A DNA stretch of 62,264 nucleotides, counting the filler, from Globobulimina sp. (Eukaryota): NCBI GenBank assembly GCA_003354225.1. It is 26 parts of 26 records of this genome, joined end to end, with 100 filler letters (N's around TTAATTAATTAA, not from the genome) between each part and the next. Parts side by side here need not be neighbours in the genome. Positions count along the whole stretch, not along the records: positions 7,201 to 9,500 come from PIVH01007541.1; 25 more parts are not named here. The stretch is one strand, 5' to 3'. A program made the position numbers and the translations under genes. The notes beneath the pieces are model-generated. The model ran no database searches. It saw only the letters and a program-made list of their open reading frames with translations, and was not told the origin of the DNA. Within the stretch, counting starts at the first letter, position 1. Each line of letters starts with the position of its first letter. Below are positions 4,801 to 13,020 of the stretch, piece by piece.

Positions 4801-7100
4801 GAGACCTCGCAGAGGAAGCGAAGGCAGTGAATGAAAGTATTGAATGCGAACTCGATTCTCAAGAAGATCAAACTGAAATCAAACGGTCAGCAATATTTCG
4901 TAAAGAAGTAAACACAGTTATCGGATTATCAAAAGATGCTTTACAAAAAATTGAGACCGAATTTGAAGCTCGTAAACAGACCCCTATTGTACCTCAAGTT
5001 AATCAGAACGATCAAATGATGCAAATTTTGTTAAAACATATGGAAAATACTGATAAAAGAATTGATCAACAAATGCAACGCGCAGACCAACAAATGCAAT
5101 TACAAAAGGAAACATCGGATAGACAATTGTACATACTTTCAGAGGAATTAAAAAGGCAAAGTTCACAAGTAAATAAAACGCTTGAAACACAAACAGTTAT
5201 ACTTGACAAATCAAACGAAAATAGTCAAAGTAAAAACGGTAACAATACAGTAAAATTACCTAAATTATCTATTCAACCCTTCTATGGTGACATCTTGCGT
5301 TGGCCAGAGTTCTGGGACGCTTTCAATTCGACAATACATACAAATGAAGGGTTAAATGACATCGACAAATTCAACTATTTTAAAAGTTTCCTCCGTGGCA
5401 GTGCTTTGGATATGTTAAGTAGCATGCACGTTTCAGAGGCTAACTATAAAATCGCAATAAATATGTTGATTGATAAATATGGTAACACAGATGTGATTAT
5501 ACAGGCTCATACTCAAAAATTATGCGAATTGGTGACGGTGACAGAAAATCCGATGCAACTTGAAAAATTCTATAGTGAAGTTGAAAGTCATATACGCAGT
5601 TTGGAAATGTATAGTCAAAATGTTACAGACAATCCATTTATAATCGAACTCATTTTGACAAAACTACCCGAAAATATGTGTAATAAATTACGTCGGAATG
5701 TAAAGGGTTTAGTAGCAAAGGAGGCGTTAAAACACATATTAGACAAATTGAAAAGGAAAGTAAACGAAAATCAAATAGTCGGGAGTAAATCATATACGGT
5801 CGAAAACGAAAGGTCTTCGAGTAGAGTAGAGTTATTTCGAGACAGACGACCATATATGGAAAAGCCACAAATAAAATCGATGAATGTCGCAAACGTTGAC
5901 AGACAATATGTGCCAACAAGTCATAAATTCGATCAATCATATCTCCATGAGGATAGACAATGCGTTTATTGCAAAAAGATTCACTTTTCGAGTGCATGTA
6001 GGACAATTCCCGATATAGATAATCGAAAAGGAATATTACAAAAAGAAAGTAGATGTTTTCGTTGTTTGGGAAACGATCATCAAATAAATAAATGTCCATA
6101 CAACATCGTATGCTATTACTGTAAACAAAGTAATCATCATAGTAGCATATGTTTTCGAAAGTTTCCACGTAAGGAATTGGACAGTAAATTACCACATGAC
6201 AAAATGCACTCTATAGTTACAAATGAGGTAGACACAAACAATGATGTCAAAATTAACGCAGACATAAAAAATGAAATCAAAAATATAATCGAAACCGAAG
6301 TGGGTAGAATGCACATGGGAATAGAAGACTTGATTGAAACTCGATTAGATTCGATAGACGTGATTAAGTCAGAAAACACGGGCATTTTACACATGACAGA
6401 AACAGAAAGTAAACGAGATGTTATGCTATTGACAGCTTACGTTGACGTGAAAAATTTAAAAACAGGTAGAATACAAAAGGGTCGAATATTACTGGATCCA
6501 GGTAGTCAACGTACAATCATCAAAAGATCATACAGTGAAATTTTTGAATTAGAGCCTATAGATCATGAAAAAATAACGATATCCGGGTTTGCACAGAAAA
6601 TTCCTACAACTGATACTTTTCCGTTAGTAAAATTTGGCGTAAAGACAGTTAATCATGGATTTAAAACAATCGAGGCAATCGTTAGTGATCGTATAACACA
6701 TGATATCAAACAAATGCCATTAAATATAGACAAGTATCCTTGTCTGAAAGATGTTAAGCATTTTGCACAGCCATTGATAGACGAGGTACGGTATTTTGAA
6801 ATCGATATATTGATAGGCAACGACTATTGTTTTGAGTTGATAAATAACCGAGCTCAGTACAAAATGGACGATGGTTTATTTTTGATTGAGACACAACTCG
6901 GTCATATGGTTGCCGGAAGAATTGCACCCGAAAGATTTTATCGACGACCGATAGTAGAAAATATTATTATTTGTCATAGCGAAAATGGGGAATACAGTTC
7001 TCAGGACACCCCAAGAGACAAAGAAACAAAAATGGTTATTGACAGTAAACTCAAAAATGCAACGGGAGATAACGGTTTTCATGAAGGCACTCCTTTTGAC
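4801..7100 (+). mobile_element. BEL/Pao LTR retrotransposon Gag-protease polyprotein fragment
   Basis: KLPKLSIQPFYGDILRWPEFWDAF...DKFNYF (DUF1759-type Gag); three zinc knuckles CVYC..H..C, CFRC..H..C, CYYC..H..C; protease LLDPGSQRT and IDILIGND; intronless open frame across the contig. Confidence 0.92.
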
Positions 7101-7200: not shown

Positions 7201-8048
7201 AATATAGGTGCTACAATCCAAGTGATTGCTCTGATTGCAAATATTATACCAAACCCAATCCCTTGCTCAGATTTCATCAAATATTTGGCGACCAATCCAT
7301 TTGCAACCGGACCTGATATCATTCATTCCCAATGCCAACAATATACCACTTATTACCACAAATATCAAATGCGGCAAAAATGAAATGATTGACATAAAAC
7401 CAAATGCAATCACTGATAATACACATCGATATCCAATGCATAATATATTGATATCGGATACATTCAATTCTTGTAACTTTGGCAAAATATAAACATTTCC
7501 AACTAATAATCCAACAGCGGCAGAAATTAAGAAGACACTGCTTACAATCATGGATTGTGAGTCATCATTCACATTCATCGCAAAAAATAGCGCCACACCA
7601 ATCCATGCCACAAAAGGATGCGCTGTCACTTTACATAATAGCTTTAAGGGATTGAATAACTTTTTTATATCATATTTTTGACGGACTTCCTAATTGCATT
7701 CCATCTGGCGCTCAATGGATAATTATATGAACAGGTTTCATTCTCAATTTCTTCTGATGTGCAATTTGCAAAATATTTTGCTGACCAACTGGGCATAAAT
7801 GTTGCTGGCATATAACCCGCGATAACCCATAAAAATATCAATGGAAGAAGGGATAATAAATGTTTTTCTAAACATATTTGTTTCAATTTGCTTACCACGG
7901 ATTTATTATTTTCAACCATTGTTATTGGCTTTTCATTGGTTCCCTGACTTCCGTCACTTATTTCGAATAGGTTTGAGTCAGTGCTAGAATTCGTTTGGTC
8001 GTCGATTACTTGATTTATTTTAGCGATATCTGAGTCTGATGTGTACAT
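7201..8048 (-). pseudogene. MFS transporter pseudogene (internal deletion plus frameshifts)
   Basis: TM segments lie in shifting frames: ...SARWNAI / NPLK-LLCKVTAHP / LALGM then MISGPVANGLVAKYLMKSEQGIGFG after an ATGA duplication; the N-half helices are missing. Confidence 0.65.
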
Positions 8049-8312
8049 TGTTAATTTGGTTCAGTTATTGAGTTTTTAAGATGTTTTCACTGTACTTCTT
8101 AATGAAACCCTTTAAAATAATGTTTGTCTGCTTATTTGTATTATTTACATATACAGATCCAACCATCGATTGAAAGCATATGATTGTACGGATAGTTACG
8201 CTTCAAAAGTTATATTTTATGTTTGTCGGTGGGTTATCTATCTATACAGTATACGGTGGGTACCAATGCAACATCCTTTCACAATCCACGTCTCCTTTTT
8301 CTTATACACCAT

Positions 8313-9500
8313 TTATTTTAATTTCTTTTTAATGCCTAGGTTTTTCATTTCTAGCTCAATCTCATCCACTTTATCACTCCTTTGATTATTATGATAAATA
8401 TGCCGTAACAACGTGTATGCTCCAGCAACTTCTGCAACATTTGCATTGTTTATTAAATATTCTATTCTATCATTAAAAATATGTTGTGCTCGTAGCATAT
8501 CATTATGCACCCGGCACGAAGACAGCAATGATGATAAAATTGAACATCTATATTTACAGTCTAACTCATCCCAATATTCATTATACAAATTCTCTGCTTC
8601 CTGCAAATGATTTTTCCTTCCAAAGCAATCAATCATTGCATTCACAATATTGCCATTCTTATATGCAATCTCATTAAAAATACATTTTGCTTCATCCACT
8701 AAACCAGAGTGGGAACAGCCATTTAAAACAATGCTATACATAATATTTGGTATTCTAATTTTTTGTTCATTTTTAATTTTATTAAACAATGGTAATAATT
8801 TATCAATATGTCCACTCTTTGCGTAAAAATCCATAATTGCACAATAAATATTACCGCTCCTATCATCATCCAACAAATCAGTGTTGATATTATCAAATAT
8901 GCTCAGCACAGTCTCTGTTTCTCCTGTTTTTGCATAAAATCGTATTATTGCTGCTTGCACATTGACATCATATAAAATATCTGCATTTTCTCTCGTTTCT
9001 AAACGATTAATAATGTGTAAACCTTCATTGATTAATTCAGTGTCGGCACTGCAACCGCATGCATCTAATGCTATACTATAACAGTATGCATCACGTTGTT
9101 TAGTATCATATTTATAAAATAAACTCAATGATTCATTGTACCGTTCATGAATATTATATACATTCATCATTGCACGAACCAACGCATTATATTTATGCTT
9201 TGTTTCCTTTGCAATGCTGTTAAATATATCCAACGCGGCATTAACATCTCCAATGCGGCCATAAAAGTCAATCACTGTGGTTATATATTCAACACTGTGA
9301 TCATTAATGTTGTTAAAATATTTGTTAATGATTTGTTTTCCTGTAACAAATTGATTAGTATTTATGCACGCTTTTAAATATAACAAATGTAACACATCAT
9401 CATGTTTTTTAGTGTTACTTTGTTCATAAATAAGCATACATTGTTTGTATTGTTGGTTATTATTTAACTGTTTCATCATTACACCAATTGATATGGTGCT
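8313..9500 (-). CDS. PLS-class pentatricopeptide repeat protein with E1/E2 extension, no DYW domain; probably 5'-truncated
   Basis: PPR repeats (VIDFYGRIGDVNAALDIF, IMDFYAKSGHIDK), L2 motif GCSHSGLVDEA, S2 motif MIDCFGRKNHLQEA, E motifs SLLSSCRVHND and AYTLLRHIY...EMKNLGIKK. Confidence 0.9.
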   Translation of the reverse strand, partial: STISIGVMMKQLNNNQQYKQCMLIYEQSNTKKHDDVLHLLYLKACINTNQFVTGKQIINKYFNNINDHSVEYITTVIDFYGRIGDVNAALDIFNSIAKETKHKYNALVRAMMNVYNIHERYNESLSLFYKYDTKQRDAYCYSIALDACGCSADTELINEGLHIINRLETRENADILYDVNVQAAIIRFYAKTGETETVLSIFDNINTDLLDDDRSGNIYCAIMDFYAKSGHIDKLLPLFNKIKNEQKIRIPNIMYSIVLNGCSHSGLVDEAKCIFNEIAYKNGNIVNAMIDCFGRKNHLQEAENLYNEYWDELDCKYRCSILSSLLSSCRVHNDMLRAQHIFNDRIEYLINNANVAEVAGAYTLLRHIYHNNQRSDKVDEIELEMKNLGIKKKLK

Positions 9501-12062: not shown

Positions 12063-12090
12063 CAAAAAAAAAAAGCAAGATTTCAACAGT

Positions 12091-13020
12091 ATGGGTAATA
12101 CCAATGAAAAAGATTTCGACCCATTGGGTATGGGAGCTCATTATGGATTTGCACATCGAGTTAATGATAAAGATATGATTAGTAATGTTTTGAGCGGAGG
12201 TGCAAATGGTATTGAAATTGATATTTGTCTTGGCTCAAGTGTGGAATTATGTGGTGGTTGGTTTCCATGCGGTTTTATTTATGATTGGTGGGTAAGTCAT
12301 AACGATTTAGGTGTTTGCAATAATCCGACTGCACAAAAATTAAGTGAATGGTTAGCACAATTAAACGCTGAATTAGATGACGATGATTATGCAGCTCAAT
12401 TAGCAATGTTATGGTTAGATGTCAAAACGCCTGGTGATGATGCTATGGATGAAGTGCCTGGGATTGTGCATGCCGCAAACTTACCTGCAAGTCTTGACAT
12501 ATTATATGATTTAACTGCATTTGGACCAGAAAGTAAAAAGGGATTTCAAAACATTAAAGATAACTTAAATGATAATGAAGGGGTTAGTTTTTGTGCAGGA
12601 AAGTCATGCGGTGGCGACTTAGATACAGTCAAAGCCATTTACGACTATTACGTAACAGAGGAGTTTACGCGCGGTACTTTTAATCATGGTGATTCGATAA
12701 ATATTGATGAAGATTTTTTAGAAGAAGCAAATAAATATAAACAAACGTGGACCAATAAAGATCCATATGGATTTAAAATGGTATTAACGTGGACCAATGG
12801 CCTCCAAGACAGCATGGAAGATTACATGCAGTTCAGCCACGCGTATCACACAGACGGACAAATTATTGGCGGTTGGCATGAGGAATGGGACTCAAATGAT
12901 GATGAAACATATCTGGTGAATTTTGAGAATGCACTGGATGCAGCTTCAGAAACGAACTGGATAAGCAAAGCCAAAGCTTCACATGATCCATTCCATCCAT
13001 TCGCGGCGATCGGGTATTAA
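12091..13020 (+). CDS. Sphingomyelinase D / phospholipase D toxin-like protein (GDPD-like TIM barrel)
   Basis: FAHRVN (catalytic His), GANGIEIDI (Mg-binding E-x-D), WWVSHND (second His), LWLDVKTP (Asp/Lys), C-terminal ASHDPF plug-like motif. Confidence 0.82.
   Translation: MGNTNEKDFDPLGMGAHYGFAHRVNDKDMISNVLSGGANGIEIDICLGSSVELCGGWFPCGFIYDWWVSHNDLGVCNNPTAQKLSEWLAQLNAELDDDDYAAQLAMLWLDVKTPGDDAMDEVPGIVHAANLPASLDILYDLTAFGPESKKGFQNIKDNLNDNEGVSFCAGKSCGGDLDTVKAIYDYYVTEEFTRGTFNHGDSINIDEDFLEEANKYKQTWTNKDPYGFKMVLTWTNGLQDSMEDYMQFSHAYHTDGQIIGGWHEEWDSNDDETYLVNFENALDAASETNWISKAKASHDPFHPFAAIGY

Follow-up and report, generated by a model that had tools for sequence, protein, structure and literature searches.

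The minus-strand open reading frame (ORF) at 8313-9500 of the window, by which we mean the whole 62,264-nucleotide stretch of Globobulimina sp. DNA analyzed, is a genuine gene of a foraminiferan and encodes a plant-style guide protein for RNA editing, now without its enzyme end. Plant factors use their repeats to read the RNA ahead of a cytidine, which is then deaminated at the zinc site of the DYW domain. We are fairly confident that the best overall explanation is a foraminiferan host with a plant-type organellar editing toolkit of nuclear PLS-E1-E2-DYW proteins, in which the repeats would bind a mitochondrial transcript and the zinc deaminase would turn C into U, restoring conserved codons, and of which the window gene would be a deaminase-less member. 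We infer the mitochondrial targeting, the role of these proteins as editors, and the editing by this host of its own mitochondrial RNA, and the datasets listed with the window sequence include no RNA.

The window consists of 26 short contigs joined by spacers, and the gene lies within 7201-9500, which is contig G000:C7541 (PIVH01007541.1). Its 5' end is cut by the contig end, and its 395 codons run free of stops and frameshifts to a stop codon at 8313-8315, directly after E2 (...GIKKKLK*). Pfam PPR matched the 395-aa ORF with an E-value of 1.7e-19, and Pfam E_motif scored 21 bits, under its cut-off of 27.3. The P/L/S array ending in P2-L2-S2 was recognized with the Pfam PPR model and with two blocks that align to the PLS repeats of 9kfx, a synthetic PPR-DYW protein. 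The terminal block, presumably S-P2-L2-S2-E1-E2 in motif nomenclature, occupies 8322-8969 on the minus strand (aa 178-393), aligns to 9kfx 274-477 (E-value 1.1e-16) and is about 48% identical to the intact paralogue L004. Both E1 and E2 are present at the C terminus according to the alignments to L004 and to 9kfx up to residue 477, the Pfam E_motif match being sub-threshold. The E2 part (8322-8426, minus strand, aa 359-393) matched PF20431 with an E-value of 4e-4, likewise under the cut-off, and is also found in the alignment to intact relatives. The PLS-E architecture (P2-L2-S2-E1-E2) proposed in the first-pass annotation is thus borne out by Pfam PPR and the 9kfx alignment, and all five motifs that it had read (GCSHSGLVDEA, MIDCFGRK, SLLSSCRVH, AYTLLRHIY, and MKNLGIKK) occur in the ORF. 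It had also placed the frame stop at the start of the PG box, and this agrees with the 9kfx alignment, which halts at the lysines right before that box. An in-frame PG box and E+ are absent from the ORF, as the stop precedes them and EIKING occurs out of frame only, and a DYW profile search found neither the HxE(x)nCxxC zinc site nor the terminal triplet on contig C7541. Land-plant PLS-E1-E2(-E+/DYW) factors (9kfx, OTP86 DYW 7o4e, and DYW1 7w86) have the same terminal repeat order and E motifs, whereas the PG box in the family studied here often reads EIxING rather than WIE, the ending is usually DYY, EYY, or EFY, and the window copy stops before the PG box.

Elsewhere in the window, two further open frames were noted by eye. 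One at 4801-7100, 2.3 kb long, resembles the gag-protease part of a Bel/Pao retrotransposon, and the other, at 12081-13020 behind a long poly-A run, carries a phosphodiesterase-like motif (AHRVN...GANGIEIDI).

Intact DYW paralogues, whose existence the first-pass annotation had thought probable, are present, as PF14432 (DYW) has at least 34 matches in the assembly. Thirty of these were fetched, and 13 (L001-L013) keep HxE, CxxCH, and a DYW-like terminal triplet; L015 has this type as well, although cut short, 15 belong to a divergent short-tailed clade, and L029 is unplaced. The short-tailed, long-branched clade (L014, L016-L028, and L030) consists of DYW-like deaminases reading H[SA]EKKALA...MCxDCH, which end soon after CxxC or CSC and have poorly scoring repeats ahead. 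With the C-terminal half of the window protein as query, 73 matches were obtained in the assembly; the 30 loci fetched comprise 10 with DYW, 18 (window gene included) whose frame stops within S2, E1, or E2, and 2 truncated by the contig end. The deaminase-less state of the window gene is therefore not unusual in this genome. In a quick tree search without bootstrap, the gene groups with the DYW-less L032, L033, and L035 (SH-aLRT 87, clade support below 95) and adjoins the intact L004 (86), which aligns end to end with 9kfx 337-612, HSEK and CxxCH included. Several full-length family members have basic, acid-poor N termini by a crude count. Within this large family, the window gene is a truncated member of the usual kind, and the intact foraminiferan DYW paralogues would be the likely catalysts of C-to-U sites.

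The break at the end of the gene is not an assembly error, since contigs of two runs from two studies cross it: record 10 of X2 (8258-8774) and record 16 of X3 (8142-8405) both span it gap-free, the latter with zero differences. Two ways of restoring the DYW domain were considered and rejected. Rescue by an intron would place a DYW match on contig C7541, which has none, and the search for an intact allele at another locus of the assembly yielded, after the gene itself, a protein match of just 48-49% identity at best.

On the minus strand at 8302-8325, overlapping the stop, an out-of-frame EIKINGV* was read in the first-pass annotation as a PG-box relic. Its position and frame are correct, and intact paralogues have EIDING, EIDIYG, or WIEIDG at the PG-box position, with WIEMNGV in the relative P0106. 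EIKING was matched in 1 of 20,000 local shuffles, a figure that refers to six profile columns picked post hoc. In the fair test, with the full 26-column PG/E+ profile and any segment allowed, the score was reached by 36/2000 shuffles and 10/1500 real windows for 40 nt and by 62/2000 shuffles and 32/1500 real windows for 101 nt, i.e., a p value of about 0.007-0.03. A BLOSUM local alignment of the remnant to the five nearest intact relatives was not significant (1106/3000), and hmmsearch behind the stop gave nothing significant. We consider a PG-box remnant probable but not certain, with modest support.

A small deletion, to which the first-pass annotation had attributed the loss of the deaminase, falls short of what is seen. 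EIKING could be accounted for by a short deletion that shifts the frame, though the missing E+ and DYW could not; nothing of the remaining E+ or of the entire DYW domain is left, and pieces of an unrelated gene stand at 8064-8229 instead, so the loss was larger. The 72 nt at 8230-8301 carry no assigned feature; an in-frame TWI..GTH with weak resemblance to E+ was rejected as a remnant because its score was matched by 2147/3000 shuffles. Next, at 8169-8229 on the plus strand, is an internal piece of the C7052 gene (G000:C7052 1406-1346, 95% identical), which matches high-depth contigs in three runs, followed at 8064-8167, also on the plus strand, by a piece from the 5' part of that gene (C7052 2226-2123, 95% identical). 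The two pieces are joined across about 716 skipped bases of this 518-codon gene. Membrane-protein-like ORF pieces in two frames and without a Pfam match lie farther downstream of the PPR gene (7267-8060, minus strand). Contig C7052 itself opens with part of a peptidase, bacterial in appearance and higher in GC (L069:1-500), that is joined to eukaryotic DNA rich in AT, a junction that suggests chimeric contigs in the assembly. The window gene probably lost its deaminase through a short frameshifting deletion at the PG box, with fragments of another gene taking the place of the DNA downstream.

Such a protein cannot edit alone, and the chances that it guides a DYW partner in trans or is decaying seem about even. 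That it works as an E-class specificity factor and recruits an intact DYW protein, e.g., of the L004 type, falls slightly below an even chance in our estimation. This reading would account for 395 codons staying open at only 46-48% identity to the nearest paralogues, for a DYW-less subclade of four members in a genome where such members are common, and for a variant contig (X2 record 10) that keeps the frame with two silent and two missense changes. Plants offer a precedent, in that E/E+ factors without DYW borrow a deaminase in trans and E+ proteins depend on DYW2, according to the accessible text of PMC7076377. The stops of the DYW-less paralogues are, however, scattered over S2, E1, and E2, which looks like repeated breakage, and an out-of-frame remnant that can still be recognized suggests recent loss. 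We assign the same just-under-even probability to the reading that the gene broke recently, as one copy of a family evolving by birth and death, and has no present function: the probable frameshifted PG box, the scrambled captured fragments 70 nt downstream, and the neighboring ORF, likewise in pieces, all point that way, but the uninterrupted frame and the identical break in runs of two studies do not.

The protist, non-plant origin that was claimed for the gene is confirmed by its relatives. The direct homologue search of the window protein gave mostly named land plants, and contamination by plant or algal DNA, or an assembly chimera, would be in keeping with this result and with the foreign DNA in the assembly, where a ciliate-like cox1 occurs along with a cob that is not of the host type and pieces of bacterial DNA. 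The named plant proteins share only 20-28% identity with the window protein, however, the GC content of C7541 (0.32) is similar to that of the adjoining contigs, the gene groups with host paralogues, and the junction is bridged in two runs, so that this explanation is largely refuted and in our view extremely improbable. The best named relatives of an intact paralogue are from Nonionella stella (49-50% identity, versus 30-39% for named plants). A profile search added further N. stella proteins and one Bolivina argentea protein and also matched Naegleria, Willaertia, and Adineta, and the ESM Atlas search returned rotifer and plant clusters only. In the E+/DYW tree (108 domains, quick search, SH-aLRT without bootstrap), host and N. 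stella domains pair as L015-P0019 (99), L010-P0098 (98), and L006-P0020 (95), and L004 groups with Bolivina and a Nonionella protein (92). All 33 named plant rows fall to one side of a branch, and no host DYW domain is nested among them. The groupings with Nonionella and Bolivina indicate that the host is a foraminiferan and that the family is older than these species.

Pfam profile searches of the assembly found no host mitochondrial cox1, cob, nad7, cox3, or member of the nad2/4/5 family, and consequently no editing target can be tied to the window gene. PF00346 and PF00510 had no match in the assembly. Matches to PF00115 (cox1) were rejected as host cox1, being one ciliate-like cox1 and nine that we take to be of nitric-oxide-reductase type; the single PF00033 match, a cob unlike the foraminiferan type, and the bacterial-looking pieces matched by PF00361 were also rejected as host genes. 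The first of these (L060), with a long insert and TGA read as tryptophan, we presume to be ciliate-like and the cob (L070) diatom-like; both are probably foreign mitochondrial DNA from prey or contamination. A 799-aa gene of the heme-copper oxidase superfamily (L059:595-2994), without an NCBIfam match, recurs in several broken copies with AT-rich flanks (L061-L067), and we take it to resemble the nitric oxide reductase of denitrifying foraminifera. A reduced-mode search for 18S gave no match in the assembly.

Evidence of editing in the wider lineage comes from cox1 in metagenomes. The foraminiferan COI primers in Table 1 of PMC8589990, for which DNA from named specimens was used, encode GWTSHA, P/LWFLRHPE, and SLSHPEA. 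Solved cox1 proteins read GWTVYP and FWFFGHPEV where the primers encode GWTSHA and P/LWFLRHPE, and the published primers thus appear to encode unedited residues. A pattern derived from the primers retrieved 43 metagenome loci, among which 34 were cox1 of foraminiferan type, 8 were not cox1, and 1 was left out; the foraminiferan assignment is based on primer matches, and the homologue search contained no named foraminiferan cox1. Seven loci, including L082, match both Rotaliida primers at the correct spacing of 330 nt.

L082 and L079 overlap without gaps for 1415 nt and differ at 43 positions, 40 C>T and 3 A>G from L082 to L079, with no other difference; the first 239 and last 24 nt of L079 are unmatched in L082. 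The C>T changes fall at codon position 1 (n = 15) or 2 (n = 25) and the A>G changes at position 1 (n = 3), hitting 39 codons and altering the residue in every one. Third-position Cs were changed in 0 of 27 cases versus 40 of 178 at positions 1 and 2 (p = 0.003). Familiar cox1 motifs are restored, i.e., RGHH to WGHH, GHLHHV to GHFHYV, and PWFLRHPE to FWFFGHPE, and the Pfam COX1 score rises from 328.6 bits in L082 to 394.3 bits in L079. Compared with 33 non-foraminiferan cox1 sequences, the edited residue was the commoner one in 30 of 38 assessed codons, rarer in 2, and tied in 6, after the last 13 of 51 listed differences, in which the C-terminal alignment is shifted and which include 1 of the 39 changed codons, had been dropped. 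The protein P0276 is a second edited-type counterpart of L082, with 31 of 32 differences of the editing type. These differences are a strong signature of heavy C-to-U editing in foraminiferan mitochondria.

L082 and L079 are the single near-identical pair found, both are metagenome sequences, and the library type of L079 (DNA or RNA) is unstated. This, and the fact that many foraminiferan-type cox1 proteins already read WFFGHPE, could favor a source other than in vivo RNA editing, namely L079 as DNA of a lineage without the sites, or an artifact of deamination damage or a code change. Against this, not one changed codon is synonymous only, the 1415 nt hold no transversion, and the changes run in one direction, avoid third positions, and restore conserved residues; a code change is a poor fit with so many different codons involved. 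We regard these alternatives as improbable. A retroprocessed DNA copy as the source of L079 would also fit, yet itself needs editing.

Editing signatures extend beyond this pair. Among 24 cox1 loci scored at conserved columns, 7 have 1-2 mismatches that C>T would repair and 17 have 7-40, and the ciliate-like control has 1. L105 (QHPPWSPSHPEAH) is an extremely edit-dependent cox1, in which 40 of 84 mismatches at conserved columns are C>T-repairable, over 149 conserved columns. The atp1 of L095 and the cob of L106 show the same codon types as cox1, with CGA at tryptophan, AGA or AGT at glycine, and CCT at phenylalanine, and two serine codons of atp1 would edit to F where references have L. A>G sites would need a second enzyme; a search with PF02137 (ADAR-like deaminase) gave no matches, but neither did its controls. 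At the level of the lineage, these sequence patterns give good support to heavy C-to-U editing, along with some A-to-G, in the mitochondria of foraminifera. The possibility of mitochondrial editing raised in the first-pass annotation therefore finds support in foraminiferan-type cox1, but not in this host. Two gene arrangements were also observed among these loci. In L106 (1123-3189), the 5' part of cob and cox1 share one stop-free frame of 689 codons (table 4), and P0295 likewise contains both Pfam families. In L095, cox1 lies in two overlapping pieces on opposite strands of one contig (1719-2762 and 9223-9927), which may represent a split gene, a rearrangement, or a misassembly.

Within Rhizaria, the paradinids (Ascetosporea) have PPR-DYW proteins with mitochondrial C-to-U and A-to-I editing, and the accessible text of PMC11946409 gives about 20 C-to-U and more than 300 A-to-I sites for the mitogenome and one to three DYW genes. 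Foraminifera resemble them in being rhizarian and in having both edit types, restorative and at codon positions 1 and 2, whereas by count the proportions are reversed: cox1 by itself has 40 C>T and 3 A>G differences, and the DYW matches number more than 30. The DYW-PPR proteins of Naegleria/Willaertia, Physarum, and bdelloid rotifers, as described in the available portions of PMC4758236 and PMC13386178, are likewise lineage-specific non-plant expansions and branch apart from the foraminiferan rows. Table S10 of PMC13386178 counts 31 rhizarian DYW domains, and foraminiferan ones may be among them in this partly accessible source. Published foraminiferan mitogenomes and COI barcodes share the table 4 code, the 330-nt primer spacing, and cox1, cox3, and atp1 with the metagenome loci, and the accessible parts of these papers suggest repair after transcription for a frameshift in a miliolid cox1 alone and do not suggest base-substitution editing (PMC10127745, PMC8589990). 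No report of DYW proteins or substitution editing in foraminifera was found in the literature covered, which leaves out most subscription journals, and the lineage-level editing result appears to be unreported.

Foraminifera probably perform mitochondrial editing at land-plant density, hitherto unreported. C-to-U sites would number in the dozens for each gene and be driven by an ancient, conserved PLS-E-DYW family with DYW-less guides acting in trans, and a second, A-to-I activity would restore invariant glycines; the editing load would vary widely among lineages, and part of the apparent divergence of the proteins would be unedited DNA translated. If this is true, plant-type editing, so far the property of a few lineages, extends to a major marine protist group, where its density far exceeds the one reported for paradinids, and further PPR-target pairs and DYW enzymes become available as an independent set. 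It would also give a reason for the divergent look of foraminiferan mitochondrial proteins, and DNA-derived translations and the trees built on them would need to be re-read. For COI, now in use as a barcode for the group, sequences obtained from RNA and from DNA of the same species would diverge by about 3%, and distances would be inflated as editing sites are gained or lost.
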